A DNA stretch of 53,728 nucleotides from an uncultured Chromatiales bacterium (GCA_964384095.1 CAYLKC010000002.1:1-53728), one strand, 5' to 3'. Positions 1,043 to 45,116 are shown, counted from the stretch's first letter. Translations and numbers: made by a program. The notes: a model not told the origin generated them from the letters alone.

Positions 1043-1180
1043 GAATGCTACATCGGCCGCCGGCGGCCGCGCGTTAGCGCGCGGGCGAGGCTTTCTTCAC
1101 CGCGGCTCTGTTGATAAGATCCTGATCTTCCCGAGCAATTCCGGACGGCAGCGAGGTCCGGACATAAACCTGGCAAGCCG

Positions 1181-13677: not shown

Positions 13678-13788
13678 GTCACCTCCGAGCCGGATATGTC
13701 GGGTGCAGAGCGGGTTGCCGGCGGTTGCGCCGGTGCCCCGGTTTGCGGGTCTGGGCGTTTCATAAAAAAGTTCTGCGAGGACGGATAA

Positions 13789-14544: not shown

Positions 14545-14556
14545 GCGACCCCGCTG

Positions 14557-19332: not shown

Positions 19333-19965
19333 ATGCACATCTCCGAAGGCATTCTGAACGCCCCCGTCTGGATTGCCGGTTACGCCGGCGCCGTTGCGAT
19401 CGCCGCGGTGACGATGCGCAATATGGACATGGAGGAGGTGCCGAAGATCGCTGTCATCACCTCCGTATTCTTTGTTGCCTCGCTGATCAAGGTGCCGATC
19501 GGGCCGGCCAGCGTCCATCTGATATTGAACGGCCTGGTCGCCGTGGTGCTCGGCTGGCGGGCATTTCCCGCCATCATGCTCGGCATCATATTGCAGGCGA
19601 TCATCTTCGGACACGGCGGTGTCACCGTCATCGGAGTCAACGCGATCATGCTCGGCGGGGGCGCGCTGGTCGCCTATCTGGTCTGGCAGTTGCGTCATCA
19701 CTTCAGTTTCGCGAAGAAGGAGTTTGTATTCGGCGCGCTGGCCGGAGCGGTAGCAACGATCAGTTCCGGCGTCGTACTGGCACTGGCCTTGCTCAGTACC
19801 GGGGAGGCCTTCATTGCAGTCGCCGGCATGATCCTGCTCGCACATATTCCGATCATGCTGATCGAGGCCGCGGTGGTCGGCGCCTGCGCCGAATTCCTGC
19901 ATCGCGTCAAACCGGAGATCCTCGCAGGGCGCAGGGTCGCGGCGGCCGGCAGCAGTAGCGGCTGA
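19333..19965 (+). CDS. ECF-type Ni/Co transporter substrate-capture component (CbiM/NikM family)
   Basis: 210 aa with the N-terminus MHISEGIL (the MHIxxG metal-binding N-terminus of CbiM/NikM) and multiple TM segments. Confidence 0.88.
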   Translation: MHISEGILNAPVWIAGYAGAVAIAAVTMRNMDMEEVPKIAVITSVFFVASLIKVPIGPASVHLILNGLVAVVLGWRAFPAIMLGIILQAIIFGHGGVTVIGVNAIMLGGGALVAYLVWQLRHHFSFAKKEFVFGALAGAVATISSGVVLALALLSTGEAFIAVAGMILLAHIPIMLIEAAVVGACAEFLHRVKPEILAGRRVAAAGSSSG

Positions 19966-19966
19966 C

Positions 19967-20755
19967 ATGGCGCTCGACATCGACCGCTATTCCAGCGTCG
20001 CCTCGCCGATCCAGCGCTGGGATCCGCGCGTCAAGACCGTTGCCCTCGGCTTGCTGATCATCTCGATTGCGCTGCTGAAATCCCTGCCGATGGCGCTCGC
20101 GGCGCTGGCCTTCGCGGCGGTGATCCTGGCGATCAGCGCGCTGCCGATGCACTTCATCTCGCACGGACTCGCCTTCATCATCGTGTTCCTGCTGCCGTTC
20201 TTTCTGGTAATGCCGCTGACCTATCCCGGCGAGGCCGCCTTTTATGTGATCGGCCTGCCGTTCGCGTGGGAGGGGTTGCGCATCGCAGCGCTGATATTCA
20301 CCAAGGCGCTGGCCATCGTCATCGTCAGTTTCGCGCTGTTCGGTTCCAGCCGCTTCGACGTGTCGATGATCGCATTGCAGCATCTCAAGTGTCCGAAGAT
20401 CATCGTGCAGATGCTGCTGTTCACTTACCGCTATACCTTCCTGTTCCTCGATGAACTCAAGCGCATGTATACTTCGATGCGGGTGCGCGGCTTCGTGGCA
20501 CGCACCGACCGCCGTACGCTGCGGGTGTTCGGACATTTCGTCGGCACCCTGCTGGTGCACAGCTTCGAGCGCACCGAGCGGGTCTACAAGGCGATGTTGT
20601 CCAAAGGGTACCAGGGGGAACTGCATTCAATGGTGACATTCCGCTCCAACGCAACCGATTACCTCAAGGCCGCGGTGGTGCTCGCGATCGGCTTCACTAT
20701 CGTCGCGCTGGACATGAGCGGAACATTTGGAGTCGCGGAACATGCCTGGTACTGA
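19967..20755 (+). CDS. ECF transporter transmembrane (T) component (CbiQ/NikQ family)
   Basis: 262-aa polytopic protein with an ...ERTERVYKAMLSKGY motif region typical of CbiQ. It lies between the M and O components. Confidence 0.85.
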   Translation: MALDIDRYSSVASPIQRWDPRVKTVALGLLIISIALLKSLPMALAALAFAAVILAISALPMHFISHGLAFIIVFLLPFFLVMPLTYPGEAAFYVIGLPFAWEGLRIAALIFTKALAIVIVSFALFGSSRFDVSMIALQHLKCPKIIVQMLLFTYRYTFLFLDELKRMYTSMRVRGFVARTDRRTLRVFGHFVGTLLVHSFERTERVYKAMLSKGYQGELHSMVTFRSNATDYLKAAVVLAIGFTIVALDMSGTFGVAEHAWY

Positions 20756-21749
20756 TACCCCCCCGGTCCCTGTCATCATCGACGTCGACAACGTCGTCTT
20801 CAGTTATCCCGACGGGCACCAGGTGCTCAAGGGACTGAGTTGCCACATCCACAAGGGTGAGAAGGTCGCGCTGATCGGGCCCAATGGCGCCGGCAAGTCG
20901 ACCTTCATGAGTCATCTGAACGGCGTACAGTTCCCGGTTTCCGGCACCGTGACCATCGACGGCGCAGTGATCGGCAAGGACAACCTCAAGGACGTCCGCC
21001 GCAAGGTCGGCATCGTCTTCCAGGACCCTGATGACCAGTTGTTCTGCCCGACTGTTTTCGACGACGTCGCCTTCGGTCCGCTGAACCTCGGCCTGCCGAA
21101 GGATGAGATCGAGGCGCGGGTCAGGGAGGCGCTGGCAGTCGTCGGTCTCGAGGGCTTTGAGGAACGCTCCTCGTTTCACCTGTCATTCGGTGAGCGCAAG
21201 CGACTCGCGCTTGCGACCGTGCTGTCTTACCAGCCGGATATCCTCGTCTTCGACGAGCCATCGACCAACATGGATCCGCTCAACCGGCGCAATCTCATCA
21301 ACTGGCTGCGCGATACGGACAAGACGATACTGCTGTGCACCCACGATCTCGATATCGCGCTCGAGGTCTGCAGTCGCTGCCTGTTGCTGGTCGACGGCCG
21401 GATCGCCGCCGATGGCCCGACGACCAGCATCCTCTACGACCGCAAGCTGCTCGAGGACAACAAGCTCGAGTTGCCGCTGGCGCTGATGACGCACGAGTTG
21501 TTGCATGACATCCTGCATCGCCAGGATATGGATGAGGGAGATCGCAAGGTCATCGGCAAGTTCCTGCATGCGCACCGGCATGCCCATGGCGCCGACGGTC
21601 ATCTGCATGTGCACCTGCATACCCACGAGCACGACCACGGCCACCTCCATGAGGAGGTCGACGAGTCGCACTTCCATGACGAGGCGCTGGACAGCGAGGA
21701 CACGCCGGCAGCCGATCGCAGGAAGCTGTCGGGAGATTCCTCAGCCTGA
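20742..21749 (+). CDS. ECF transporter ATPase (CbiO/NikO family) with a His-rich C-terminal tail
   Basis: Walker [10 protein letters not shown], signature LSFGERKR and Walker [10 protein letters not shown]. The tail reads [30 protein letters not shown]. The ATG at 20742 is preferred over the TTG at 20727. Confidence 0.9.
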
Positions 21750-24197
21750 GGCCTGCGCCCGGAAACCGCGCAGGCGCAGACTGTTGCTGACGACGAACAG
21801 ACTCGACACACTCATCGCCGCGGCGGCCAGCATCGGGTTCAGCAGGATCCCGAAGAACGGATAGAGCGCCCCCGCCGCGACCGGGATCAACGCTACATTG
21901 TAGGCATAGGCCCAGAAGAAATTCAGCCGGATCGTGCGCAGGGTCCGCCGGGACAGCGCGATCGCATCGACGAGCACGCGCAGGTCACCGCGCATCAGGA
22001 TCACCTCCCCGGATTCGATCGCTATATCCGTGCCGGTGCCGATTGCGATACCGACGTCGGCGCGGGCCAGCGCCGGCGCATCATTGATGCCGTCGCCGAC
22101 AAAGGCGACACGACGTCCCTCCCTTTGCAGGCGTTGAACCTCGTCGGCCTTCTGCCCCGGCAGCACCTCGGCAATGACAAATTCGATCCCGACCTCGGCC
22201 GCGACCGCGTGCGCGCTGCGCGGGTTGTCGCCGCTCAGCATGCCGGTCTTCATCCCCGCCGCGTGCAGGGCCGCGATCGCCGCGCGGCTGCCTTCCTTCA
22301 ACGGGTCGGAGATCGCGAGCAGACCGCGCAGATTGCCGTCACAGGCAGCGAACAGCAGGGTGTGGCCGAGGCTGCTCCAGTGTGCAGCGACCGCTGAGAG
22401 GGGCGCTGTACCGATGCCGAGCCGTTCCATGTAGCGTCCCGCGCCGACCTGCACCAGCTGGCCGTCGATTCGGGCCTCGATGCCGAAGCCGGGCTCGGCA
22501 CGAAATTCGCTCGCCGGTGCGATGGTGAGACCGCGCGCCCCGGCGGCGTCGGCGATCGCCTTCGCAACCGGGTGCTCGCTCAGGGCCTCGGCACTCGCGA
22601 CCAGCGCAATCAGCGCCTCCGTGTCTCCGTCCACGGCCTCAACGCCGGTCAGTTCCGGTCGGCCGATGGTCAGCGTGCCGGTTTTGTCGAACAGGATCGT
22701 ATCGGCGCGCGCCAGCATTTCCAGTGCGGTACCCTTGCGGAACAGGATGCCGAGTTCAGCGGCCTTGCCGCTGCCGACCATGATCGCGGTCGGCGTTGCG
22801 AGCCCCATCGCGCAGGGACAGGCGATCAGCAGTACGCTGACTGCTGCGATGAAGGCGAAGCTCAGCGCCGGCGCCGGACCGAACCCGAGCCATGCGGCGA
22901 AGGTGATCGCCGCGAGCAGCAATACCAGCGGCACGAACACCCCGGCAATGCGGTCGGCGATTTCCTGGATCGGTGGTTTCGATGCCTGCGCCTCCTCGAC
23001 CATACGGATCACGCGCGCGAGGACGGTGTCGGCGCCGACCCGCGTCGCGCGGAAGCGGAAGGCCCCGGTCTGGTTGATGGTGCCGCCGGTGATCTCGTCG
23101 CCGGTTCGTTTTGCCGCAGGCAGCGGTTCGCCGGTGATCATCGATTCGTCGAGATAGCTCTCGCCCTCGATGACCACGCCATCGACCGGAACGCGCTCGC
23201 CCGGGCGCACGACGATCTCGTCGCCCGGCATGACGTCCTCGACCGGCATCTCGGTCTCGTGACCGTCGCGGATTACGCGTGCGGTCTTGCCCTGCAGGCG
23301 GATCAGGCGCTTGATGGCCTCCGAGGTCCGGCCGCGGGCGCGGGACTCGAGCCAGCGGCCGAGCAGGATCAACGTGACGATGACCCCGGCCGCCTCGAAA
23401 TAGAGATTGGCAGTGCCCTCCGGAAACAGCCCGGGCACGCTCAGCGCCAATGTCGAATAGCACCAGGCGGCAGAGGCGCCGATCATGACCAGGGAATTCA
23501 TGCCGGGATTCAGGTGCCGCAGTTCACCCCAGCCCTGGCGAAAAAAACGACGCCCGGCGATGAACAGCACCGGACTCGCGAGCAGAAATTCCAGCCAGCG
23601 CCAGCCGGCGACCGGCATCAGGGAGTGCATCAGGTTGCCGAGTCCGGGCAGCAGCATCGGCCCCATCGCGACCAGCACCAGCGGCGCGGTCAGCGCAAGG
23701 GCCAGCATGAGGTCATGTTTGAGAGTTCGGAGTTCCTGTTCGCCGCGGCGTTCGTCAGCGCCGGCGTCCTCGGCCCCGTCATCGGCCAGCGCCTCATAGC
23801 CGGCGGAGGTGATCGCTGCGCGGATGCCCGCGAGGTCGCCGGCGTCGGGCAGGTATTCGATCGCGGCCTTCGCGGTCGCGAGGTTCACGCTGACACCGAT
23901 AATGCCCGGCAAGCGGCCGATCACCCGTTCGAGGCGCGTGACGCAGGCGGCGCAGGTCATGCCGCCGATGCCGATAGCGATGCGCCGCGTCCGCGGCGGA
24001 TAACCGGCCTCACGCACCGCCGCGAGCGAGCGCGCCAGCTCGAAGGTATCGGTATCGACCTCGATTGCGGCCTTGGCGGTCGCAAGATTGACGGTGGCGG
24101 CTAGTACACCGGGCTGCTTGTTCAGGACCCGCTCGACGCGGGTGACGCAGGCGGCGCAGGTCATGCCGTCGATACCGAAATTCAGTGAGGTCTTCAC
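21741..24197 (-). CDS. copA: copper-translocating P1B-type ATPase
   Basis: 818 aa with two N-terminal [11 protein letters not shown] domains, a CPC transmembrane motif, DKTGTLT and GDGINDAP. Confidence 0.95.
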
Positions 24198-24205
24198 GGC
24201 GGCGC

Positions 24206-24514
24206 TCAGCGGTACTTCAGCAGCTCCATCAGTTCGTCGACGATCACATTCGCGTCACCGCGTTGCGCCGCGGTGGCGACATGATCATGCAGGTGACTGC
24301 GCAGCACCACCGTGCTGACCTTTCTGAGCGCGCCATCGACGGCCTTGACCTGCTTCAGTACATCGACGCAGTAGACGCCCTCGTCTTCGAGCATGCGCAG
24401 GATGCCCTCGACATGTCCCCGGATAGAACGCAGGCGCCGGCTTGCCTCCGCGCGGGCGCCGGGGTCGAGGCGCAGCGCGCGACAGTGGTCGACCGCGCCG
24501 CTCAGCTCTGCCAT
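24206..24514 (-). CDS. csoR: CsoR/RcnR-family metal-sensing repressor
   Basis: 102 aa counted from the ATG at 24514. [38 protein letters not shown]...H.H is the CsoR signature. The longer ORF-track model (to 24673) overlaps copZ. Confidence 0.85.
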
Positions 24515-24702
24515 GCCTTGTAGCCCGCTTCCTCGATCGCGGCGACCAGTGCGCGCGGATCGGCGCTGCCCTCGATGCGGGCCGCCCCCTGTTCCACGCT
24601 GACCTCGACGACGCGCTCGACGCCCGGCACCGCGGTCAGTGCACGCTCCACCGCCTGCCGGCAGTGTCCGCAACTCATGCCTTCTATCTTCAGTTCGATC
24701 AT
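24502..24702 (-). CDS. copZ: copper chaperone, HMA domain
   Basis: 66 aa. MIELKIEGMSCGHCRQAVERAL contains the MxCxxC motif. Confidence 0.88.
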   Translation of the reverse strand: MIELKIEGMSCGHCRQAVERALTAVPGVERVVEVSVEQGAARIEGSADPRALVAAIEEAGYKAWQS

Positions 24703-24719
24703 GTGTATGGCTCCTATCC

Positions 24720-24740
24720 TACCCCACCTGGGGAGGGGTA
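24720..24740 (-). promoter_or_regulatory. candidate CsoR operator (TACCCC-N9-GGGGTA with inner CCCCAnnTGGGG dyad) in the copZ promoter
   Basis: The minus strand reads TAGATTACCCCTCCCCAGGTGGGGTAGGATAGGAGCCATACAC-ATG. It is a G/C-tract dyad of the type bound by CsoR proteins, lying between a -10-like TAGATT and the RBS AGGAG. Confidence 0.55.
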
Positions 24741-24951
24741 ATCTAGCATGATCGCCGGTGCCGCCGCAAGGCGCCGGATTTATGGCTCAATTTTATGTTT
24801 ATCCTGTATGATTTGTGACGGGTCCGCGTCCGAGACGGACCCGGGGACGGCACAAGCCGGTCCGGCGGGCGAGGGTGCCGGACAGCGCTGCGGCGCGGGC
24901 GGCCGGCGCCGCGAACACAGGACTGCGATCAGCATAACCGGGGCGGGGTGT

Positions 24952-25413
24952 ATGGAACGTATAACAATGTCGCTGGATACAGCGCTATCCGAGTTGTTCG
25001 ATACGTTTATCAAGGAACGGGGCTACAAGAATCGTTCGGAGGCAATGCGTGACCTGATCCGGCAACAGCTCGAGAAGGAGCGGCTGGAGAAATCCGATGA
25101 CGGATACTGCGTCGGTACCCTGAGTTATGTCTACAACCATCACGAGCTGGAGCTTGCCAGTCGGATCACCCGCGTGCACCACAAGCACCATGAGCTGAAC
25201 CTGTCGAGCATGCACGTCCATCTCGATCACGACCATTGCCTGGAGATCGCGCTGATGCGCGGACCGGTCCGCGAGGTACGCGCGTTTGCGAACGCGGTGA
25301 TGGCCGAACGCGGCGTGCGTCACGGCAAGCTCAACATGGTGCCGGTCGACGTCAGCGAGAGCAGCCATAGTCATGGCGGTCACCCCCATACGCACAGCCG
25401 GCCGATGACCTGA
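24952..25413 (+). CDS. nikR: nickel-responsive regulator NikR
   Basis: MERITMSLDTALSELFDTFIKERGYKNRSEAMRDLIR is the RHH N-terminus. The C-terminal ACT-like domain has the HHKHH..H..C nickel site and a His-rich tail. The 204 nt upstream of it in ORF 24748.. are not supported. Confidence 0.9.
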   Translation: MERITMSLDTALSELFDTFIKERGYKNRSEAMRDLIRQQLEKERLEKSDDGYCVGTLSYVYNHHELELASRITRVHHKHHELNLSSMHVHLDHDHCLEIALMRGPVREVRAFANAVMAERGVRHGKLNMVPVDVSESSHSHGGHPHTHSRPMT

Positions 25414-25439
25414 GCCAGGCACAAGGTGCCGGGACACGC

Positions 25440-26066
25440 ATGCGAGACAAGGAAAAGACCACCGGCGTGATTTTCGTGCGCCACGGCCAGGCCGACTTTC
25501 CGAACAAGCGCCTGTACTGTGACGACCGCGAAGATCCGGGCCTGACCGAGCGCGGCCACGGGCATGCGCGCCATGCCGCAGAACTGCTCGTCGGCCAGGC
25601 GATCGATGTGATCTACGCGAGCCCGATGCAGCGCACGCGCCTGACCGCGGAGGCGATCGCCGGCGCGACCGGTGTGCCGCTGCACTTCGATCCGCAGTTG
25701 AAGGAGCGGCCATTCGGCATCTGGGACGGCCTCTTTTTCGATGAGATCTCGCGCGATTATCCCGAGGCGTTCCGTGCCTGGAAACAGGATCCGGTCTACT
25801 TCGTGCCGGAGGGTGGTGAGACGATCCACGATCACATGAGTCGCGTGACCGGCGCCCTGGAGCGCATCCTGAACGCCCACCGGGGGCAGCTGATCGTCAT
25901 CGTGGCCCATGTCGGCCCGATTCGCATGTGCATCACCGATGCGCTGACGATGCCGCTCGAGGCCTACCGCCGCCTGACGATCGATTATGGCTCGCTGACC
26001 CGGGTGGATTACGGTGAGCAACAGAACAATCTGATTTATTTGAACTTTTATCACCGGGACGGATGA
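25440..26066 (+). CDS. histidine phosphatase family protein (phosphoglycerate mutase / CobC-like)
   Basis: 208 aa with the RHGQADF catalytic motif and a downstream H in VAHVGPIR. Confidence 0.75.
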   Translation: MRDKEKTTGVIFVRHGQADFPNKRLYCDDREDPGLTERGHGHARHAAELLVGQAIDVIYASPMQRTRLTAEAIAGATGVPLHFDPQLKERPFGIWDGLFFDEISRDYPEAFRAWKQDPVYFVPEGGETIHDHMSRVTGALERILNAHRGQLIVIVAHVGPIRMCITDALTMPLEAYRRLTIDYGSLTRVDYGEQQNNLIYLNFYHRDG

Positions 26067-26195: not shown

Positions 26196-27116
26196 ATGAC
26201 TAGGGGTAGCAGAGGTTTCTACGGAGTACTTGCAGCCGCGCCTGCGCTGGCGCTGCTCCCGCTGACGGTCCATGCTGCGGCCGCCTTACCGGTCTTCGGC
26301 GGCTGGACGGTCGATAACGGCGTCATCGACCACACCTGCCCGGTCGGGTTCAGCTGCACGGTCGAAGTCGGCGGCATCGACGGTTTTGCGCAGATCTCGG
26401 TCAGCGCGGCGGGCGAGCCGACCTACATCTGGACGATCATCACCGACCCGAACGCAAATACCGACGATCCCAATTTCTACCGCGACGAGAGCTTCGTGCG
26501 TCAGGGCGCCACGAACGGCATCATGGCGCAGCAGATGCACCAGCAGAGTGACGTGACCGGTGACTTCACGAACACGAGCACGCTGATGATCGGCTGGGCC
26601 AATGAGGCCCCGGACGCAGACAATCCGAATCTCATCATCGAACAGGCCTTCGCCGGCGCCGATGATACCTTCATCTCGAACTTCGACATGCTCGTGATCC
26701 ATGACGAGAACGGCGAGGTCGCGGATCGTTCGATCACGATCGACCAGCGGGTCTTCTTCAATGACAACGACCCGATCCCCGACCAGCAGCGCTTCCTGCT
26801 CGAGCAGCGTCAGGGCGCGTTCACCGACGCGGGTTCGATCACCTTCGACTCATGCCAGGAGCAGGCGGGCGAATGCTCACTCGCGTGGGACGCCGGCGAT
26901 GAGGTCATGATGCGCTGGATCGGGCAGAGGCTCGATCTCGGCGGGCAGGGGACGTCACAGTTTGGTTTCCAGGGGGTCACCAATCTGACCCCGGATCCGG
27001 ACCTGGAGATCACGACCTTCTCACTCGACGCGACCGGCATCAATGACGGCCTTGGCGGCGCTGTAACACCGTTCGGCTGGAACGAGACCTTCGGCGATAC
27101 CCCGCCGTCGCTGTAA
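26196..27116 (+). CDS. secreted acidic protein of unknown function
   Basis: 306 aa with the signal peptide ALALLPLTVHAAAA, a very Asp/Glu/Asn-rich sequence and two short Cys loops (CPVGFSC, CQEQAGEC). It has its own RBS GAGGGGGG and a strong terminator. Confidence 0.6.
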   Translation: MTRGSRGFYGVLAAAPALALLPLTVHAAAALPVFGGWTVDNGVIDHTCPVGFSCTVEVGGIDGFAQISVSAAGEPTYIWTIITDPNANTDDPNFYRDESFVRQGATNGIMAQQMHQQSDVTGDFTNTSTLMIGWANEAPDADNPNLIIEQAFAGADDTFISNFDMLVIHDENGEVADRSITIDQRVFFNDNDPIPDQQRFLLEQRQGAFTDAGSITFDSCQEQAGECSLAWDAGDEVMMRWIGQRLDLGGQGTSQFGFQGVTNLTPDPDLEITTFSLDATGINDGLGGAVTPFGWNETFGDTPPSL

Positions 27117-27163
27117 ACGCGGCCGTCAACGGTCTCTTTGCCGCGCAGTTCATGATGGGAATC

Positions 27164-27197
27164 AAAGAGAAGGGCAGCCTGCCCTTCTCTTTTTTTT
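27164..27197 (+). terminator. rho-independent terminator
   Basis: aaagagaagggcag-cc-tgcccttctcttttttttt: an 11-13 bp stem followed by a T-run. Confidence 0.85.
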
Positions 27198-27226
27198 CGC
27201 CTGCGGGCGCGTGATATGGAAGGCTG

Positions 27227-28078
27227 ATGCCGCGAAGATACCTGCAAGGTCTCCTGATACTCGTCACCGGCGCGTGCGCCGGGGGTGGCGCCTTGGCCGC
27301 GGGGCCGGAATCCGAGCTGACCGGCGTCGAGGTCTATCAGCGCTGCGCGGAGCAATACGCGGGCGAAGATCAGCAGGGTCTGTTCACAGTCTCCCTGCGG
27401 GATCGGGAGGGCCGTATCCGGCGCAGCGAATACATGCGCTTCTGGAAGGACTACGGCGGCGAGGACGGTGTCGCCGACAAGATGCTGCTGTTCACGGTCT
27501 ATCCGCCGGATGCCCGCGGCGCCGCCTTCATGCGCATTGCCTATACCCCTTCGACCAGCCGCCCGGTCGATCAGTGGATCTATCTTCCCCTGCTGAAAAA
27601 GATCCGCCGGGTGACGATCCGCGATCCCGGCGATAGCTTCCTGAACTCCAACCTGACCTATGCCGATGTCTCGCCGCGCCGGATCGACGAGGACGATCAC
27701 CGTTATCTCGGCGTCAGCACCGTCGAGGACATCGATTTCCATGTCGTCGAGAGCGTCCCCCGCGAGAGCAATCCGCTCTATGGCAAGCGGGTATTCTGGT
27801 TCGTCAAGACGGACAACTGGGATGAGTGCGTGACCGCGCGCATCGATTACTACGACACCGCCGGCGAGCTGATCAAGGACCAGTTCATCAAATGGCAGCG
27901 GGTCGGTGATGCCTGGGTGTGGGAACGCGTGCTGGTCAGGAGCCGGCGCAGCGAGAGTGCATCGATCTTTCAGTTGAGCGATGTCAGGGTCAACGTGGGG
28001 CTGGAAGACGAGCTCTTCTCCGCCCGCAGCCTGCAGCGTGGACCCGAGGTCATCGAGCGCTTCCGCCGCGCCCCCTGA
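27227..28078 (+). CDS. LolA-like outer-membrane lipoprotein-sorting family protein
   Basis: 283 aa with an N-terminal signal or possible lipobox (LVTGAC). Length and sequence style (FWKDYGG...KMLLFTVYPPDARGAAFM...DQWIYLPLLKKIRRV) fit the LolA_like family as I recall it. No HMM search was run. Confidence 0.6.
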   Translation: MPRRYLQGLLILVTGACAGGGALAAGPESELTGVEVYQRCAEQYAGEDQQGLFTVSLRDREGRIRRSEYMRFWKDYGGEDGVADKMLLFTVYPPDARGAAFMRIAYTPSTSRPVDQWIYLPLLKKIRRVTIRDPGDSFLNSNLTYADVSPRRIDEDDHRYLGVSTVEDIDFHVVESVPRESNPLYGKRVFWFVKTDNWDECVTARIDYYDTAGELIKDQFIKWQRVGDAWVWERVLVRSRRSESASIFQLSDVRVNVGLEDELFSARSLQRGPEVIERFRRAP

Positions 28079-28104
28079 GGCCCGCGCTTGTCCGGCGTTC
28101 AACG

Positions 28105-28125
28105 TTGTTATACAATGTATAACAA
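28105..28125. promoter_or_regulatory. AT-rich perfect 9-3-9 palindrome, candidate operator/promoter in front of the RHH gene
   Basis: ttgttatac-aat-gtataacaa forms an AT island in about 65% GC DNA, 29 nt upstream of the ATG at 28154. Confidence 0.5.
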
Positions 28126-28153
28126 TTTGATCCGGGTGTCACAGGGGGGAGCC

Positions 28154-28597
28154 ATGCACGATTTCGCGAGAGAGATACGCAACGCCGGCCGCAAGCAGGC
28201 CAGGATCGCTGCCGACAGGGCGCGCAAGAACGCGCTGGCGCGCAAGCAGGAATACCTTGGCGCGCGCGTGCCGAAGGAATTGCGTGACAAGGTCATCGCG
28301 CGGGCGGAGACGCTCGGAATCCCGGTCTCGATCCTGATCCGCGACATCCTCGAGGAGGCATTCGGCGGCGCTGCCGAAACTGCCGGTGAGCAGCGCAGCG
28401 CCCGGGCGCCCGTCGCGCGTACGGACGGACCGCGCTTCCCCGGCGTCATCGGCTGGGAAGATATCGTGCTGAATCGCGGCATGCAGTGTTCCTCCTGTCA
28501 CCACCGGATCAGTGCCGGCGCAGTGGTCATGTTCGGCTTCGCTGCCCCGGGGGAGGAACATGTTATCCTTTGCGACAAATGCAGAGTCGATGCCTGA
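28154..28597 (+). CDS. ribbon-helix-helix (CopG/Arc-like) regulator fused to a C-terminal Cys4-type zinc-ribbon-like domain
   Basis: 148 aa. RVPKELRDKVIARAETLGIPVSILIRDILEE is an RHH motif. The C-terminus has CSSCHH...CDKC. RBS GGGGGGA. Confidence 0.6.
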   Translation: MHDFAREIRNAGRKQARIAADRARKNALARKQEYLGARVPKELRDKVIARAETLGIPVSILIRDILEEAFGGAAETAGEQRSARAPVARTDGPRFPGVIGWEDIVLNRGMQCSSCHHRISAGAVVMFGFAAPGEEHVILCDKCRVDA

Positions 28598-30069
28598 AGC
28601 CTGGCAGGATACTTCACGCCCTTTCCCTGATTCTCGCGCTCCAGGTCGTCGATAGCGGCATCCGGGAGACGCATGCACAGGACCCGGACGTCGGGCCCGG
28701 GTCCGCGGGCGCCATGGCGCGCATCGCTGACCGCCTGACCCTGAACGGTTATCTCAAGAACGAAACCGCCTACCGCTTCCGCGAACCGCGTTCGATCACC
28801 AAGCTGCGCAATATCCTCTGGCTGGGTGGAGAGTACTCGTTCAGCCCTGATGCACGGTTGGTGGCCTCCGGCTGGGCCTATCACGACCTGGCCTACGACC
28901 TGTTTGCCTATGAGACGATCAGCGCGCGTTTCGCGCGCGATGATGACCAGCCGCTGGTCTTCATCGACAATCTCGAGCAGGAAAAGGATTCCCCGGTGGC
29001 CGAACTGCGGGAGTTCTATCTCGACCTCTATTTCAATCGCCTCGATATTCGCGTCGGCAAGCAGTTCGTCATCTGGGGTGTCTTCGAGGGTATCCGGATC
29101 ACCGACGAGCTCAACCCGCTCGATTTCCGCGAACTGATCCTGCCGGATCTACTCGATTACCGGATCCCGCAATGGACACTGAAGACCGACTATTACGGGG
29201 ACGCGGCAGACCTGCAATTTCTGTGGATTCCGGACATCCGCTTTCACAAGCCCGCGCCTCGCGGCTCGGAGTGGGAACTGCTGCAGGATATACGGGACGA
29301 GGATGACCGGATCATTACCCGATACCCGGCGCGAAACCTGCGTAATTCCGATTTCGGGCTGCGCCTGTCGAGCGAATGGCGCGGTAACGACGTCGCGCTC
29401 AGTTATCTGTACACCTGGGACAGTTTCCCGGTGGTGTTCCGCTCCGCGCTCATCGACTCGCCGCTGGACCCGCAGTTCTTTCCGACCTATTCCCGTCTGA
29501 ATGTCTATGGCGGCACGCTGATCCGGCCCGTCGGGCGGGGTATCCTCAAGGCAGAGCTGGCATATGTGCCTGACAAGTACTTCGGCCTGCGCGCCGACAG
29601 CGATCGCGATCTCGACGGGTTCCTCGACGAACAGGGCGCGGTCCGCAAGCGCCATATCCGCTGGGGGCTGGGTTATGACTTCAGCCTGTGGGGCATCGAC
29701 TTCTCGCCGGCGATCACGCAATGGGTGATCCTGGGCTACGATGAGCGGCTCATCCAGGACGAATACGATACCTCGCTGACCCTGTTCGCGCGCAAGCCGG
29801 TGCCTCAGTACAATGCCGTGATCCAGTTGCTCGCGATCGGTCTCGTCAATCTCGAGGAGCTGTATCTCAAGCCCAAGGTCATCTTCAATGTGACCAGTCA
29901 GTTCCAGATCGCGACCGGCGCCGACCTGTTCTTTGGCCGCCGTTCACAGCTCGGGTCGCCGGGGGGCGGCGCCGCGATCATCGGCGCGAGCCTGGTCGAA
30001 CAGGCGCAGTTCTTCGGCAATTTCAACGACAATGACCGGTTGTTCCTCGAGTTCCGGTATTCATTCTGA
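28579..30069 (+). CDS. outer-membrane beta-barrel protein (DUF1302-like)
   Basis: The ATG at 28579 overlaps the RHH gene's end. It has a signal peptide ..THA/QD, the sequence LTLNGYLKNETAYRF.., alternating beta-strand patterning and the C-terminal FLEFRYSF. Confidence 0.6.
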   Translation: MQSRCLKPGRILHALSLILALQVVDSGIRETHAQDPDVGPGSAGAMARIADRLTLNGYLKNETAYRFREPRSITKLRNILWLGGEYSFSPDARLVASGWAYHDLAYDLFAYETISARFARDDDQPLVFIDNLEQEKDSPVAELREFYLDLYFNRLDIRVGKQFVIWGVFEGIRITDELNPLDFRELILPDLLDYRIPQWTLKTDYYGDAADLQFLWIPDIRFHKPAPRGSEWELLQDIRDEDDRIITRYPARNLRNSDFGLRLSSEWRGNDVALSYLYTWDSFPVVFRSALIDSPLDPQFFPTYSRLNVYGGTLIRPVGRGILKAELAYVPDKYFGLRADSDRDLDGFLDEQGAVRKRHIRWGLGYDFSLWGIDFSPAITQWVILGYDERLIQDEYDTSLTLFARKPVPQYNAVIQLLAIGLVNLEELYLKPKVIFNVTSQFQIATGADLFFGRRSQLGSPGGGAAIIGASLVEQAQFFGNFNDNDRLFLEFRYSF

Positions 30070-31007
30070 TGATCCTCACGATTCGCAGAAAACGGTCTGC
30101 TCATCTGCTCCCGTTCCTTGCGCTCGCATTGCCGTGCATGCTGCTGGCATCGGCGTGGCCGGGCGAGGCCCGCGCCGAGTGGGAGCGCTGGAGCATCTCG
30201 CCGCTGCTCGGCATCCACAGCCCGCGGCTTAAACTGCTGAACGAGGGTGAGTTCCGCGCGCCGTTGCCGGGCCGCGGGCGACTGATTCCGTCCGGGGTCG
30301 AGGAAGGCGTCGATTTCGACTTCATGATCGACAATCCGTTGCCCGCGATGCGGCGTGGCACCGAGGCCGGGGTCGAGATCGCCTTCGCGCTCGATCAGCA
30401 GAATGCGCTGTTTTTCGGCGCCAGCGTCTGGGAGAGCGGCTCGGCCGCGTCCATGCGCACGGAGATCCCGTTCCAGGGCACGCTGACCGCCGTCGGCTAT
30501 GAGCGCAGCGCCCGCATGTCCTACTTCCAGTACTTCCTCGGCTGGCAGCGTCTGCTGAATCCCGGGCATGAACGCTGGAGGTTCCACACCCGGGTCGCGC
30601 TGCACGAGGTCTTCGATATCGACTACCGCGAGGAACTCGTGTTTGGCTTCAATCCGGAGGGCGTGAATACCTTCAAGCGCTTTATTGTCATGGATTCCCA
30701 GGCGACGGGTCACTTCATGTTCAACCTCGGCTTGAGCAGTGAGTATGCCTTTCGCGACTGGTTCTCGATCGGTGCGGATCTCGGCTACACCATCAGCGCG
30801 CGCAAGTTCAAGCTCGGCAACTCGACCCTGACGACGGATATACAGGTAGAGGACAACCTGAATTTCCGCACTCCGGTCCAGCTGGACTCGCAGCAACGGC
30901 TGACTTATCTCGCGGAGGCGGAGTCGTTCGATGACGTGACCTACCGTGACATGGAGCTGGACTTCGATGGCTGGCGCTTGCTGTTGCGGGTCAATCTCCA
31001 TTTCTGA
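30069..31007 (+). CDS. putative outer-membrane beta-barrel protein, unknown family
   Basis: 312 aa. The start overlaps the preceding stop (TGATG). It has the signal LLASAWPGEARA/EW and the C-terminal LLLRVNLHF. Confidence 0.5.
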   Translation: MILTIRRKRSAHLLPFLALALPCMLLASAWPGEARAEWERWSISPLLGIHSPRLKLLNEGEFRAPLPGRGRLIPSGVEEGVDFDFMIDNPLPAMRRGTEAGVEIAFALDQQNALFFGASVWESGSAASMRTEIPFQGTLTAVGYERSARMSYFQYFLGWQRLLNPGHERWRFHTRVALHEVFDIDYREELVFGFNPEGVNTFKRFIVMDSQATGHFMFNLGLSSEYAFRDWFSIGADLGYTISARKFKLGNSTLTTDIQVEDNLNFRTPVQLDSQQRLTYLAEAESFDDVTYRDMELDFDGWRLLLRVNLHF

Positions 31008-31015
31008 GTGGATGC

Positions 31016-33580
31016 ATGGCCGTTTCCGATCCGAAGCAGTCTCCCGATTTTACCTGCCGCCGGTTTGCGGGACTGGTGGCGGCCTGCCTGCTGACCCTGT
31101 GTTGCCTGTTGACGCCGGCGGTCCTCGCACAGACCGGCGATGCCGGCGTCACGACCCTCGAGGGTGAAGTCGAGGCGAATCCGGGACGGGCCGATGTCCG
31201 TATCCGCCTCGGTATCCTCTATGAATCTCTGGAGCGCATCGATGACGCAATCGGCCAGTTCCAGGCTGCGTTCGACCTCGCTGCGCCGGGAAGCGTCGAG
31301 CAGGAGGATGCGCTGCGCAGGCTTCGTTATGCGATAGCGACGCGGAATGCCAGGCGCGGCGAGGTCGAGGTTGCCCGGGACCAATTCGCATCGCTGGCAG
31401 CGGATTATCCCGACAACGCCCTGATCGTCTACAGCGCAGCGGTCGCCAACCTGCTGATCAACCGCCGGCAGGAGGCGCGCGCCGGATTCGAGCGCGTCAT
31501 CGAGCTCGATCCCGGGTTCGTCAATGCTTATCTGAATCTCGCTACCATCGACGAGAGTGAAGGCGATCTGGTCGCGGCGGTCGACAGGCTTGAGCGCATC
31601 GTTGAAATCGATCCCGACAGCACGGCCGCCCGTCGCGCAAGCATCCGTCTCGGTCTGATGGAAGGGCAGTTACTGGCACGACAGGGTAATTTTGCCGAGG
31701 CCGGGGCGGCCCTCGAACGGGTGCTGGCCGTCGAACCAGAGAATCGCGTTGCGCTGGGCACACTGGCAGAGATCCGCCGGGAACAGCGTGATCCCGACGC
31801 CGAGCGCGAGGTACTGACCACGCTCAGCAAGCACTATCCCGACGATGCCGGCGCGCGCATGCGGCTCGCCGAGTTGTACCTGCTGTCCGGCGATATGGCG
31901 CTCGCTTGGGAGGAGCTCGACCGGGTCGCCGCCTCGGAGGCAGACAGCCGTCTTCGTGAACAGGCGCTTCGGGTCATCGCGCGCCTGCGACAGACCGAGG
32001 AGGGGCGCGCGATCGAGCGTCAGCGCATGCAGGTTAGGATCGGGCAATACCAGGACAGGCTGGCGGCCGACCCGGACGATGCGGAGGCCTGGAAGGCGCT
32101 GGGACTGCTGTACTTCAGGGAAAATGCCTACGAGGACGCCGTCACGGCCTTTGAAAACGTGCTGCGCATCGACCCCGACGACCGGCGTGCAACCGAAGGG
32201 CTGGCGATGCTGTATGACCACCTCGGCAGATTCGGGGATTCGGCACAGCGGTATACGCGGCTGCTGGCGATCGAGACCGATGAAGCAGCCCTTGCCCGCC
32301 ACCAGCGATCACTGCGCCTGGTCACGGCCAAGGAACTGTATACCGACGGCAGGCACGCGGAGGCGACGGAGGCGTTCCAGGCCGTGCTCGACTTAGATCC
32401 CGACAATCAGATCGCGTGGTTCTATCTCGGGCTGATCCACACCGAAGAAGAGGACCTGCCAAGGGCGGTCGATGCCTACCGCGAGGTCGTTCGTATCGTC
32501 CCGAGCCATGTCGGGGCGAGGATGAACCTGGCGTTCAGTTACGAGCTGCTGAACCGGGAGGAGGACGCGCTCGATGAGTACCTGAAGATCCTGCAGTCTG
32601 ATCCGTCCGAGGCGGTCGGGGAACGTGTCCGCCGCCGGCTCGATCTGGTACAGCGTCGCATCCGCGGCGTGACCGTTTCCGCCAGTTATGTGATGGCCTA
32701 CGACAACAACAGCAACCTGGCGGAGAGGAACATCATCGATGATTTTCGTTCCGACCTGTCGATGAATCTGGCCTATCAACACAAGTCCCGGAACGACCTG
32801 CGCTGGCGCTTTTTGCTGAGTCCGAGCTACATCAATTACCACAAGGGACAGTTCGATTACCTGAATACGACGATGACGGTCTCGGCGACGCTGATGCCGG
32901 GGCGCTATACGCTGGTCGGCGGATACACCTGGCGCAGCAATGCCTCGCTGATCTCGGACAATCGACTGAGCCGCATGCATACAGTCTTTGCGGACGGCCT
33001 GCTGCGGACGCGTCTGCCGAACCTGTTGCACCCGTTTTCCGGCGAACTGGCCTCGAGCAACCTGTCGGCAAATTTCTCGTACAGTGATTTCGATGCCCGC
33101 AACAGCCCGTTCTTCAGCTCCTATACGGCCTCCGCGGGCGCTTCCTTGAATCAGAATGTGACCGACCGCCACCGCCTGCGGCTGGGCTATTCTGCGGTCT
33201 GGAACTCCAATAAGGAGCTGGTCGGCAACGACTACGCCTATCTGAGCCACGGGATCACGATCGGCGCCGATCGCCAGATGTCCTGGGGCAGCATCAACGC
33301 CAATTACGGGTTCACGCTGCTCGATTACAGCAATCCGGACTCATTCACGCAGTTTACCCGCCAGCGCAGGAACACCCGCCACAACCTCGCGGTGGGCGCC
33401 AGTTACCGCTTCCGGCCGAATATCGGATTCTTTACGACCTTGTCGTGGACCAGGAACAGCTCTAACCTGCCGGTCGGATTCATCCTCGGCAGGGAAGACA
33501 TCATCGAGGGCTTGCAGAGTTCTTCGCTCAGTAATTACGAGCGCTTGATGATCAGTGGCGGGATGAACGTCACCTTCTGA
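31016..33580 (+). CDS. TPR-repeat periplasmic domain fused to a C-terminal outer-membrane beta-barrel (Slam/DUF560-like or PgaA/BcsC-like architecture)
   Basis: 854 aa with a signal peptide. About 550 aa of TPR-like helices follow (repeated A..Y/F..A...P motifs). The last roughly 300 aa are beta-rich (VSASYVMAYDNNSN...) and end in GGMNVTF. Confidence 0.7.
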   Translation: MAVSDPKQSPDFTCRRFAGLVAACLLTLCCLLTPAVLAQTGDAGVTTLEGEVEANPGRADVRIRLGILYESLERIDDAIGQFQAAFDLAAPGSVEQEDALRRLRYAIATRNARRGEVEVARDQFASLAADYPDNALIVYSAAVANLLINRRQEARAGFERVIELDPGFVNAYLNLATIDESEGDLVAAVDRLERIVEIDPDSTAARRASIRLGLMEGQLLARQGNFAEAGAALERVLAVEPENRVALGTLAEIRREQRDPDAEREVLTTLSKHYPDDAGARMRLAELYLLSGDMALAWEELDRVAASEADSRLREQALRVIARLRQTEEGRAIERQRMQVRIGQYQDRLAADPDDAEAWKALGLLYFRENAYEDAVTAFENVLRIDPDDRRATEGLAMLYDHLGRFGDSAQRYTRLLAIETDEAALARHQRSLRLVTAKELYTDGRHAEATEAFQAVLDLDPDNQIAWFYLGLIHTEEEDLPRAVDAYREVVRIVPSHVGARMNLAFSYELLNREEDALDEYLKILQSDPSEAVGERVRRRLDLVQRRIRGVTVSASYVMAYDNNSNLAERNIIDDFRSDLSMNLAYQHKSRNDLRWRFLLSPSYINYHKGQFDYLNTTMTVSATLMPGRYTLVGGYTWRSNASLISDNRLSRMHTVFADGLLRTRLPNLLHPFSGELASSNLSANFSYSDFDARNSPFFSSYTASAGASLNQNVTDRHRLRLGYSAVWNSNKELVGNDYAYLSHGITIGADRQMSWGSINANYGFTLLDYSNPDSFTQFTRQRRNTRHNLAVGASYRFRPNIGFFTTLSWTRNSSNLPVGFILGREDIIEGLQSSSLSNYERLMISGGMNVTF

Positions 33581-33587
33581 GCCTTGA

Positions 33588-34334
33588 CTAGTCGCGCAGC
33601 GCGTTGAAGGCAAGCACTGCCCAGGTCAGGGTGGCGCCGGCGAAGACGACCATGACGCCGAGGCCGAGCGCGTAGGCGCCGAGGTCCGGCGGCGCGACCA
33701 GCACCGCGCGCACGCCCTCGACGGCGTAGGTGATCGGGTTGATGATCGAGATGAACTGTATCCAGTCCGGCATGAACTGCTTCGGCACCAGCGCCGACGA
33801 GAAGAACATCAGCGGCAGCGTCATCAGGTTGCCGATCATCACCAGCGGCTCCTCGCGCTGCAGCGTGATCGCGAAGCCGTTGGAGATCGCCGCGAAGCCG
33901 ATGCCGAGCAGGAACACGATCAGCATACCCATGATCAGATAGACCGGGTTCATCGTAATCGTCGAACCCATCAGCCAGGCGACGACGAGGATGATCAGCG
34001 CCTGGGCGATGACCTGCACCGCCGAGTGCATGACCCGGCTCAGCACGATCGCGACGCGTGATACCGGCGACACCAGCAGCTTGTCGACGGTGCCGGCCGA
34101 GATCTCGCGCAGCAGGCTGACGCCGGACCACGACGAGCCGAACAGTACGGTCATGATCAGGATGCCGGGGACCATGAAGTCCATGTAATTTTCGGCCTGC
34201 ACGAAGCGGCCGAACAGCTGGCCGAAGATGATCAGCCAGATCAGCGGCTGGATCAGCGTGAACAGCGTCCACAGCGGCATCCGCAGGGTGATGATCATGT
34301 ACTTGTTGAACAGATGCCAGGTATCGGCGATCAT
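33588..34334 (-). CDS. ABC-2 type exporter permease
   Basis: ATG at 34334, 4 nt after the ATPase stop. MIADTWHLFNKYMIITLRMPLWTLFTLIQPLIWLIIFGQLF.. with six TM segments is typical of ABC-2/DrrB-like proteins. Confidence 0.8.
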   Translation of the reverse strand: MIADTWHLFNKYMIITLRMPLWTLFTLIQPLIWLIIFGQLFGRFVQAENYMDFMVPGILIMTVLFGSSWSGVSLLREISAGTVDKLLVSPVSRVAIVLSRVMHSAVQVIAQALIILVVAWLMGSTITMNPVYLIMGMLIVFLLGIGFAAISNGFAITLQREEPLVMIGNLMTLPLMFFSSALVPKQFMPDWIQFISIINPITYAVEGVRAVLVAPPDLGAYALGLGVMVVFAGATLTWAVLAFNALRD

Positions 34335-34338
34335 CACG

Positions 34339-35823
34339 TCAGCCCTTCTTGTTCCAGTCGGTGCGGGGCTTGCCGTCCTTGTCGACCCACTCGTTGCCCT
34401 GCCAGTCCGGGGAGTCGCCCCATTTGCCCTTCTGGTCGCCCTTGTCGTCGACCCATTCATTGCCTTTCCAGTCGTCGGCTGATGCCGGCGCGGCCGGTTT
34501 CTCGGGCTCGGCGGCGGGCTGGCTCCAGTCAGATTTGGGCTTGCCCTGGTCGTCTACCCACTCATTACCCTTCCAGTCAGGCGAGTCGCCCCAGTCGCCT
34601 TTCTGCGCGCCCTGCTTGTCGACCCATTCGTTGCCCTGCCACTCGCCGGAATCGGCGGTCCTGCTCTCTGGCGGCGGATCGCCGGGCTTCTTGTCCTGCT
34701 CGGGTATGCGCGGCTTACCGTCGGCATCGACCCACTCATTACCCTGCCACTCGGCGTCGTCCTCGCCCTCGACATAGCCCCATTTCGCGGCCTGCTTCTT
34801 CCAGTCGCCACCGCCGCCACCCTTGCCGGCCCACTGGTGCCACCACTGTTCGGGCTCTTCCTCGGCGGTCTCGACCATGCTGGCGCCGGTGTACTTCAGG
34901 AACACGTCGTCGAGCGTCGGGCGCGCGAGCGACAGCGTCTTCACATGGACGTCGTGGGGCGCGGCCTGTTCCATGATCGCCGGGATCGAGGTCGCGCCGT
35001 CGTCGACGTAGAGGTGCAGGTTGTTGCCTTCGAACACGGCCTCGCGGGCGATGCCGCCGGCCTTGATGTCAGCCGCGTAGGCCTTCTCGCGCGCGCCGAC
35101 GCTATCGAAGGAGAGCACGACCGAGTCGCCGTGGATGCCGTTCTTGAGTTCCTCGGGCGTGCCGATGATCCGGATCTTGCCGGCATTGATGATCGCGACG
35201 TGGTGCGCGAGCTTGTCGGCCTCTTCGAGATAGTGCGTCGTCAGCAGGATCGTCAGGCCGAACTTTTTGTTCAGTTCCTCGATATGTTTCCACAGGATCT
35301 TGCGGCTGCGGATATCGAGGCCGAGCGTCGGCTCGTCAAGGAACAGGATCTTCGGCCGGTGGATCAGCGCGGTCGCGATGTCGAGCTTGCGGGTCATGCC
35401 GCCGGAATAGGCCATCACCGGCTTGTCGATGCTGTCCTTGAGTTCGAAGTATTCGGCGAGTTCCTCGATGCGCGAGCGGATGTCGGCCTTCTTCATCCGG
35501 TACATATGCCCCTGCAGGGTCATGTTCTCGCGACCGGTCAGGAAGTAGTCGACGCCGGTCTTCTGGGCGACGACGCCGATCGTGCGGCGCACCTGCTCCG
35601 GCGCCTGGTCGACGTCGATGCCGCCGACGAAGGCCTTGCCGGAATCGAAGCCCGACAGCGTCGACAGCACCCGGATCGTCGTCGACTTGCCGGCCCCGTT
35701 CGGGCCGAGCAGGGCCAGGATCTCACCCTCGCGGACCTCGAGGTCGAGTTCATCGACCGCGCGGTGGTCGGGCAGATAGATCTTGGTCAGCTTGCTGACC
35801 TGTATGGCAAGATGGTCTGTCAT
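34339..35823 (-). CDS. ABC-2 exporter ATPase (DrrA-like) with a roughly 170-aa Trp-rich tandem-repeat C-terminal extension
   Basis: Walker [10 protein letters not shown], signature YSGGMTRK and Walker [13 protein letters not shown]. The tail contains 5 copies of W(Q/K)GNEWVD. Confidence 0.9.
34342..34860 (-). repeat. in-frame tandem repeats encoding the W(Q/K)GNEWVDxxG(K/A/D) modules
   Basis: The 24-nt core gtcgacccaytcrttrccytkcca (plus-strand reading) occurs at 34381, 34447, 34552, 34618 and 34726. Spacings alternate 66 / 105-108 nt. Confidence 0.85.
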
Positions 35824-43780: not shown

Positions 43781-43790
43781 GCGCGCCGGC

Positions 43791-44981: not shown

Positions 44982-45116
44982 GCGTGTCGTCGCTCCAGTA
45001 CTTCCGGTGGATCCGGTGTTGGTAGTGTCAGGACGTCTTGCGGGGCCGGTCCGTTCCCCCCGGCTATTCTAGCGGTAATCGACGGAGCTGTGGAATGAAG
45101 GGCGGGTAGCCTGGCG

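Follow-up and report, generated by a model that had tools for sequence, protein, structure and literature searches.

Cassettes that associate a DUF1302 protein, a LolA-like protein and a resistance-nodulation-division (RND) pump of the HAE3 type are widespread and have phenotypes in several bacteria, yet they are mechanistically dark and without a structure. In Castellaniella defragrans, deletion of AmeABCD lowers monoterpene tolerance and dye efflux (PMC6394551). Cassettes of the DUF1302-DUF1329-BNR(COG4447)-RND(COG1033) kind are found in Shewanella, Kangiella and Pseudomonas (PMC6394551; bioRxiv 10.1101/072470; 10.1101/2020.07.04.188060). These genes form cofit clusters, for which the export of an envelope component was proposed, and in Pseudomonas the DUF1302/DUF1329 pair and the BNR/RND pair are cofit though carried by separate loci (bioRxiv 10.1101/072470; 10.1101/2020.07.04.188060). 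We describe here a cluster of six genes from an uncultured Chromatiales bacterium, located on a stretch of 53,728 nucleotides (GCA_964384095.1, CAYLKC010000002.1:1-53728), which is called below, at its whole length, the window. An earlier note on this DNA, made from the sequence alone, did not recognise the gene combination as a described system, whereas its core (LolA superfamily, DUF1302 and HAE3-RND) had already been reported (PMC6394551; bioRxiv 10.1101/072470). The cluster is a pump-less offshoot of the reported RND pump/LolA-like/DUF1302 systems and not a wholly new self-contained machine.

Two other systems resemble it more loosely. ApeL (LolA-like), ApeM (RND) and ApeN (LolB-like) are proposed carriers of the aryl-polyene (APE) lipid to the outer membrane (PMC8253772). 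In Thalassolituus oleivorans, TOL_3187, which is induced on C28 alkane, is a fusion of MMPL and LolA-like domains encoded beside the porin-like TOL_3188 (PMC6304351); this fusion supports a direct coupling between pump and carrier.

Gene content of the cluster

The six open reading frames (ORFs) lie on the + strand between positions 26196 and 33580, where the earlier note had placed them:

26196-27116, + strand, gene 1: secreted acidic protein, 306 aa, isoelectric point (pI) 4.05, with a signal peptide; monocistronic, Pfam-dark family
27164-27200, + strand, intrinsic terminator after gene 1: 13-bp stem and T8 (27164-27192), the strongest terminator-like site of the region
27227-28078, + strand, gene 2: soluble periplasmic LolA-like carrier, 283 aa (PF17131, LolA_like/TP_0789-like)
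28154-28597, + strand, gene 3: cytoplasmic protein with ribbon-helix-helix (RHH)-like and Cys4 zinc-ribbon features, putative autorepressor, 147 aa, pI 9.3, ATG start
28579-30069, + strand, gene 4: DUF1302-family outer-membrane barrel, 496 aa, ending FRYSF (PF06980)
30067-30071, + strand, TGATG at the junction of genes 4 and 5: relatives carry here a gene for an HAE3-type RND/MMPL protein of 815-870 aa, cleanly absent from the window
30069-31007, + strand, gene 5: outer-membrane beta-barrel of a new rare family, 312 aa, ending NLHF (predicted with AlphaFold2, AF2)
31016-33580, + strand, gene 6: tetratricopeptide repeats (TPR) and C-terminal barrel, 854 aa, with a signal peptide, ending NVTF (AF2 prediction and Pfam TPR matches)

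Genes 3 and 4 overlap by 19 nt (28579-28597) and genes 5 and 6 are separated by 8 nt (31008-31015). Reading frames, coordinates, terminator and tight junctions are all as first described; gene 3 has an RHH-like N-terminus and four invariant Cys, and its length is 147 aa by gene call and sequence (ATG at 28154) and not 148 aa. The six genes, which encode neither an enzyme nor an inner-membrane protein, are a conserved cell-envelope operon of uncultured sulfur-type Gammaproteobacteria. Their order recurs in about 45 independent loci from metagenome-assembled genomes (MAGs), which is far beyond chance.

With systems of the AmeABCD kind, the cluster shares a DUF1302 barrel, a periplasmic protein of the LolA superfamily and, in the relatives of the window, an HAE3-type RND pump. 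However, its carrier belongs to PF17131 and is not a full-length DUF1329 protein. Furthermore, whereas systems of this kind include a BNR/Ycf48-like protein (COG4447), neither the six proteins nor the gene tables of related loci revealed one. The cluster has in addition a 312-aa barrel, a fusion between TPR and a 14-strand barrel, a putative RHH/zinc-ribbon regulator encoded within it together with an operator, and a secreted acidic protein linked to it; its RND gene is deleted in the clade of the window. The lack of BNR, the two further barrels, the regulator of its own and the shedding of the pump set it apart from all described cassettes.

By analogy, ApeL, ApeM and ApeN can be regarded as functional counterparts of the core trio. 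The Ape module shares with it an RND-family transporter and a LolA-like chaperone, and also an S-adenosylmethionine (SAM) methyltransferase within the cluster, as found in some of the related loci (types A and B, see below). In contrast, no APE biosynthetic genes (ketosynthase, acyl carrier protein, dehydratase) and no LolB-like DUF3261 protein are found here, and three outer-membrane barrels are present instead. The T. oleivorans system differs by its fusion of domains that belong to separate genes here, by its induction on alkane and by its lack of a TPR-barrel protein and of a regulator.

RND-bearing, RND-less and paralogous forms sharing one operator make this cluster family a natural dissection of such cassettes. 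With the secreted acidic protein, the RHH/zinc-ribbon regulator and the 312-aa barrel, it brings three partner families that are dark to Pfam, and it includes a TPR-barrel fusion in a lipid-type and not a polysaccharide-type context. Its operator, regulator and carrier are testable handles on hydrophobic transit across the periplasm and outer membrane outside Lol, Lpt and Mla.

Loss of the MMPL gene and the paralogous cluster

Scanning one genome per species with the gene 5 alignment as query led to 51 loci, all from uncultured Gammaproteobacteria labelled Chromatiales, Chromatiaceae, Thiotrichaceae or Ca. Tenderia. The window proteins and the MMPL protein of locus L007 were mapped onto the six-frame ORFs of all these loci. 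The cluster is found in about 45 gammaproteobacterial MAGs, 34 of which carry an MMPL gene. This neighbourhood analysis supports a co-regulated, conserved envelope module with its own small regulator, the latter as proposed in the earlier note; the genes are neither unlinked outer-membrane proteins nor a polysaccharide locus, the two outcomes that the earlier note had set against its own reading. The NCBI label of one locus, L003 (GCA_050182315.1), is Nitrospiraceae; this locus is fully syntenic with the gammaproteobacterial ones, including copA, nikR, tsaD, plsY, folB and folK, and its contig is probably mis-binned.

In type A loci, the order is NikR (sometimes present), a CobC-like histidine phosphatase, gene 1, an O-methyltransferase (sometimes), one or two LolA-like genes, gene 3, the DUF1302 gene, the MMPL gene, gene 5, gene 6, an FmdE-domain gene (sometimes), the convergent permease and ATPase genes of an ABC-2 exporter, and tsaD. 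Translationally packed into the operon in 34 relatives, the MMPL gene separates genes 4 and 5 in 31 full loci and immediately precedes gene 5 in 3 partial ones. It encodes a protein of about 815-870 aa with MMPL and Patched/sterol-sensing domains; among NCBIfam families, HAE3 TIGR00921 fits this protein best, although its 212-256 bits do not reach the cut-off of 352. In contrast, gene 4 abuts gene 5 without any MMPL gene in the window and in L003, L005, L008-L012, L015 and L021; gene 5 also directly follows gene 4 in L045, a short contig. No MMPL remnant was detected across the whole window (tblastn best E 0.06; Pfam on large ORFs).

When genes 4 and 5 are placed in a neighbour-joining tree, the loci without MMPL group in one clade, nested beside the MMPL-bearing lineages, with L021 just outside. 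As L021 shares the WxGNEW tail repeats that this clade displays in the neighbouring ATPase, a single loss of the MMPL gene is plausible; two events are possible. That an inner-membrane or energy component is missing reflects a derived loss, specific to this clade. Within the MMPL-less clade (comparisons with L008, L009 and L010), the ratio of nonsynonymous to synonymous substitution rates (dN/dS) ranges from 0.08 to 0.31 for all six genes, which indicates purifying selection. The pump-less operon is thus a functional one, and a decaying remnant left by the MMPL loss was rejected on these ratios.

We consider it rather probable that a hydrophobic and probably lipidic cargo is exported by an RND-type trans-envelope route, of which genes 2 to 6 provide the periplasmic and outer-membrane half. 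The ancestral order would have been LolA-like protein, RHH regulator, DUF1302 barrel, HAE3 RND/MMPL pump, 312-aa barrel and TPR-barrel protein, as still seen in most relatives. The pump would take the cargo out of the inner membrane, the soluble LolA-like protein would shield it through the periplasm, and the DUF1302 barrel with the two extra barrels would pass or insert it at the outer membrane, with the long TPR arm of gene 6 perhaps serving as a periplasmic scaffold. Gene 1 could be a partner or client of this system. In the clade of the window, the pump step would most likely be provided in trans by a paralogous MMPL-bearing cluster located elsewhere in the genome, the adjacent DrrAB-like ABC-2 exporter being a less likely supplier.

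Paralogous clusters, called type B, were found in eight loci (L007, L040, L048, L050, L052, L054, L057 and L058). They comprise LolA-like, DUF1302, MMPL and gene-5-like genes, lack gene 3 and form a separate clade in the tree of genes 4 and 5; a TPR-barrel protein is also encoded upstream in L057 and L007. Three MAGs carry both an MMPL-less type A locus and a type B locus: JBJHCZ (L008 and L050), which shares about 80% amino-acid identity with the window and is its closest relative, CAZJKV (L009 and L057) and CAZASZ (L015 and L052). A type B locus is therefore found in the same MAG for 3 of the 7 MMPL-less genomes and for none of the 34 MMPL-bearing ones (Fisher test, p about 0.003, uncorrected for phylogeny). 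Such a pattern is expected if the pump of the type B cluster takes over from the lost one. The Pseudomonas loci, split but cofit, provide a precedent for this substitution in trans.

Several points weigh against an export route of this kind. Four of the 7 MMPL-less genomes showed no type B locus, owing either to MAG incompleteness or to true absence. The presence of a paralogous MMPL cluster in the organism of the window is itself deduced from relatives at about 80% amino-acid identity, and the cluster family is known from MAGs alone. No gene for a cargo and no biosynthetic or lipid-modifying enzyme gene was found in the window. Moreover, TPR-barrel fusions are otherwise known from the export of polysaccharides or proteins and not of lipids.

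The earlier note had seen in these genes a self-contained module. Genes 2 to 6 could indeed carry a periplasmic cargo to the surface without any dedicated inner-membrane transporter, as all of them were kept under purifying selection after the MMPL loss and as more than half of the MMPL-less genomes showed no paralogous cluster. However, this appears unlikely: the 34 loci with an MMPL gene have it translationally packed into the operon as an integral member, the MMPL-bearing paralogous cluster present in relatives co-occurs only with MMPL-less type A clusters, and the Pseudomonas cassettes are functionally linked even when split.

Small-molecule or sugar methyltransferases accompany some loci of the family. 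In eight loci (L005 5654-6715, L022 2172-3257, L023, L026, L031, L032, L035 and L038), and not in the window, a COMT/BchU-like O-methyltransferase gene (PF00891 and PF08100) separates gene 1 from the LolA-like gene, perhaps a hint that the cargo is a methylated small molecule or lipid. In L050, an FkbM-type and two TPR-SAM methyltransferases are encoded nearby.

The carrier, the three barrels and gene 1

The assignment of gene 2 to the LolA-like proteins and of gene 4 to the DUF1302-like ones, proposed beforehand, agrees with the Pfam searches. Gene 2 matches PF17131 with 123.1 bits (1.3e-35; gathering cut-off 30 bits), its residues 84-271 covering model positions 3-184 of 184. It also matches the PDB sequences 9TP6 (P. 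gingivalis LolA3), 4Z48 and 3BK5 (E 1e-25 to 2e-19) and, partially, DUF1329 (31 bits, cut-off 23.1). The possibility that gene 2 encodes a lipoprotein was rejected, its homologues bearing type I signal peptides and not lipoboxes. An MMPL-bearing sister clade (L013, L014, L016-L018, L020 and L027) carries two tandem LolA-like genes upstream of gene 3 instead of one.

Gene 4 matches PF06980 with 40.8 bits (cut-off 23.2), the match covering only positions 95-366 of the 541 of the model, and its orthologues in the related loci have precomputed PF06980 matches. AF2 models of DUF1302 proteins show an 18-strand AlgE/Occ-like barrel that docks DUF1329 (PMC13499233).

Genes 5 and 6 had both been read as barrels, and the AF2 models support this. 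The gene 5 model, built with 29 homologues, is all-beta and of barrel type, with a predicted local distance difference test score (pLDDT) of 91.3. This family is rare, with 57 clusters among 5.8 billion proteins, every one of them from metagenomes or MAGs, and gene 5 has no match in Pfam, NCBIfam or PDB sequences. Foldseek searches of the PDB retrieve only generic barrels (FadL, OmpT/Pla, OmpA and NalP) with template-modelling (TM) scores of at most 0.36. Taken with the model, this points to an outer-membrane barrel without any close solved relative.

As FadL and TodX are among these top matches, the DUF1302 barrel and gene 5 could alternatively be channels for the import of a hydrophobic nutrient, with the LolA-like protein as binding protein. 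DUF1302/DUF1329 genes are indeed found in hydrocarbon, aromatic and terpene catabolic islands and are required for growth on fatty esters. However, the TM-scores of gene 5 to FadL are only 0.17-0.21, none of the loci carries catabolic genes, and the flanks are made of housekeeping and metal-homeostasis genes. Furthermore, the RND and ABC-2 partners are exporters. Uptake thus seems quite improbable, and export is the direction that we infer for genes 2 to 6.

Gene 6, conserved as the last gene in all type A loci, has a longer product. Its model (pLDDT 84.5) starts at the N-terminus with a signal or hydrophobic helix, continues with about 13 TPR pairs (aa 59-549; nt 31190-32662) and has a C-terminal barrel predicted with 14 strands (aa 550-853; nt 32663-33574). 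In a Foldseek search with the full model, the TPR region dominates, so that only TPR proteins (OGT, SPY and APC) were retrieved and the barrel was not classified. In the same way, when full-length gene 6 was used to look for homologues, TPR candidates crowded the results and only 11 orthologues emerged. Profile searches of PDB sequences with the gene 5 and gene 6 barrels gave nothing useful, and homology between these two barrels is not detectable by hhalign (probability 8%). In six loci (L022 13070-13705, L023 13745-14359, L024, L032, L036 and L038), gene 6 is followed by a gene encoding an FmdE-domain protein (PF02663).

With Slam, PgaA, BcsC and AlgK-AlgE, gene 6 shares an N-terminal periplasmic TPR region fused to a C-terminal outer-membrane barrel. 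The likeness to PgaA, BcsC and Slam noted earlier therefore holds for the architecture, but not for the barrel: its sequence (the C-terminal third) matches no Pfam or NCBIfam family and bears no DUF560, PgaA or BcsC signature. For PF04575 (DUF560), no match was found in the barrel region of gene 6 and of three orthologues at E up to 10. The TPR arm is also much longer than in Slam, PgaA and BcsC and, unlike their loci, the cluster has neither an adjacent lipoprotein substrate gene nor a polysaccharide synthase.

Two alternatives arise from this architecture. An exopolysaccharide export locus of the PgaA/BcsC/AlgK-AlgE type would also account for the resemblance of DUF1302 models to AlgE and for the epimerases and the GT41-like protein encoded in the type B locus L007. 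Nevertheless, it is highly improbable, as no synthase, glycosyltransferase, Wza/Wzx/Wzy or cyclic di-GMP receptor is encoded in the window or in type A loci. In addition, the matches of gene 6 to NCBIfam PgaA (39.5 bits, cut-off 366.65) and BcsC (47.1 bits, cut-off 858) are confined to the TPR region and far under the cut-offs, and its barrel has 14 strands and not 16.

The second alternative is a Slam-like (type XI-like) translocon, in which gene 6, aided by genes 4 and 5, would move proteins of the gene 1 family to the surface while the LolA-like protein would chaperone proteins or a lipid anchor. The barrel of Slam is also reported as 14-strand, and gene 6 matches TPR_Slam with 41 bits (cut-off 35). 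However, this match is only one among about 20 overlapping generic TPR matches, and the DUF560 search was negative. Moreover, the ancestral operon has an RND lipid-type pump and a LolA-like protein; to our knowledge, Slam systems use neither. The other evidence bearing on this translocon comes from gene 1.

With a profile hidden Markov model of the gene 1 family, nearly all type A loci show a copy upstream, and copies are also seen in type B loci, several of them in each of L050 and L052. The family, in which a CPxGFxC motif is conserved, amounts to 407 representative clusters in an exhaustive search, many of them tandem duplications of 650-760 aa; 36 sampled members gave zero Pfam matches. 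A hairpin followed by a U-tract, comparable to the terminator of the window, is found 3' of gene 1 in nearly all related loci, which fits with a separate and strong expression. Gene 1 encodes a separately terminated secreted acidic protein that is probably abundant.

The presence of gene 1 relatives beside both cluster types, among them three tandem pairs in L050, this conserved terminator and the operator half-sites found upstream of gene 1 in three loci (see below) are consistent with a Slam-like translocon. Conversely, gene 1 proteins have type I signal peptides without lipobox and one paralogue stands alone amid housekeeping genes (L059); on balance, we regard this translocon as improbable. 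Gene 1 is linked to the cluster but does not adjoin gene 6. The gene 1 family travels with both cluster types and is a linked but not exclusive partner; gene 1 could provide a client, a soluble protein that binds the cargo, or a component of the surface. A broader proposal, that the three barrels and the LolA-like protein form an undescribed outer-membrane assembly or secretion machine displaying gene-1-family proteins or a lipid-protein conjugate, independently of RND in the clade of the window, is tentative and rather unlikely. In L050, the three tandem pairs (1082-3256, 12528-14742 and 19415-20954) flank the type B cluster, each comprising a gene-1-like secreted protein and a distantly related secreted protein of about 360 aa.

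The putative regulator, its predicted operator and the neighbouring genes

Besides its structural genes, the export route proposed here includes a candidate regulator. The 75-nt gap between genes 2 and 3 holds the following elements:

28088-28116, + strand, sigma-70-like promoter TTGTCC-17-TACAAT for genes 3 to 6
28105-28125, no strand assigned, predicted operator, a perfect 21-bp palindrome TTGTTATACA-A-TGTATAACAA overlapping the -10 element

This palindrome is the sole match in the window, where 0.01 is expected by chance. Its 8-mer half-site, TGTATAAC/GTTATACA, has 77 copies in 904 kb of related loci, whereas about 6 are expected. Most copies are immediately upstream of gene 3 or, in type B loci, of the DUF1302 gene. 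Thus, the half-site is found between the LolA-like and DUF1302 genes of L007, L040, L048, L057 and L058, which have no gene 3. In an alignment of both cluster types, a TTGACA -35 element is conserved and its spacing to the half-sites is fairly constant. Single half-sites are also found upstream of gene 1 (L029, L030 and L039) and about 70 nt upstream of the O-methyltransferase gene (L032 and L035).

Gene 3 is present in every type A locus and absent from type B loci. Twenty orthologues, once aligned, have in common an RHH-like segment, LGARVPKELRDRV...GIPVSILIRNILEEAF, and four invariant Cys in the C-terminal module. Profile matches to the RHH proteins MazE7, AvtR, ORF56 and Arc are weak but consistent, and the match to CopG_antitoxin (17.6 bits) is below the cut-off of 28. 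The conserved palindromic site ahead of gene 3 provides indirect support to the RHH reading.

Gene 3 would bind the palindrome over the -10 element of its own promoter and control genes 3 to 6, and we infer that it acts as an autorepressor of this internal promoter. The conservation of the half-site across the cluster family, including the paralogous clusters without gene 3, supports this role as autoregulator. The shared operator further suggests that gene 3 also controls the paralogous cluster, probably acting on it in trans. Two observations temper this regulatory scheme: gene 3 resembles solved RHH proteins only weakly (E 0.02-0.8), and the only operator copy in L050, the type B cluster found in the closest relative, is degenerate.

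The genes that border the cluster in the window are:

33588-35823, - strand, DrrAB-like ABC-2 exporter, convergent with gene 6: permease 33588-34334 and ATPase 34339-35823
21741-24197, - strand, CopA
about 24206-24500, - strand, CsoR-like repressor ORF
24967-25413, + strand, NikR
25440-26066, + strand, CobC-like histidine phosphatase (TIGR03162, 145 bits, cut-off 163)

The ATPase of the exporter matches TIGR01188 DrrA (320.6 bits, cut-off 312.45) and its permease PF01061 (ABC2_membrane, 114.7 bits). The earlier note had left undecided whether this exporter supplies the inner-membrane step. It adjoins most type A clusters but is separable from them: no copy adjoins the cluster in L015, L033 and L034 and, in CAZASZ, the exporter is next to tsaD in L052, on a different contig from the type A cluster of that MAG (L015). 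These four loci weaken the view that it is an obligatory partner, and no operator half-site was found near it in the window. It may take part in the inner-membrane step. In mycobacteria, the export of phthiocerol dimycocerosate (PDIM) involves MmpL7, DrrABC and LppX. Most type A loci likewise unite three such protein types: a pump of the MMPL-type RND kind, an ABC-2 exporter of the DrrAB type and a carrier with the LolA fold. However, PDIM export serves a mycomembrane, has no beta-barrels and uses LppX as a lipoprotein, and here the ABC-2 exporter is only a possible functional partner.

The C-terminal part of the ATPase (about 180 aa; 34339-34880, - strand) is a Trp-rich hydrophilic tail with five W[QK]GNEWVD repeats. 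W-rich low-complexity tails are found in all relatives, the WxGNEW form being restricted to the MMPL-less clade, L021 and L052. The permease ORF (33588-34460, - strand) could encode 290 aa, but its start is probably the second Met (34334), giving 248 aa as in L003; the Arg/Thr-rich stretch upstream of this Met overlaps the ATPase tail in another frame. The convergent stops of gene 6 and of the permease gene are 7 nt apart, without a terminator between them.

Elsewhere in the window, Rfam and tRNA scans were empty, and two long ORFs have no Pfam match: one at 43779-45098 (+ strand), the other, probably spurious, at 2041-3723 (- strand), where it overlaps glyS on the opposite strand. Upstream of the cluster, CopA, the CsoR-like repressor, NikR and the phosphatase belong to a metal-homeostasis block (21741-26066), and the synteny of NikR, the phosphatase and gene 1 with the cluster is kept across many MAGs.

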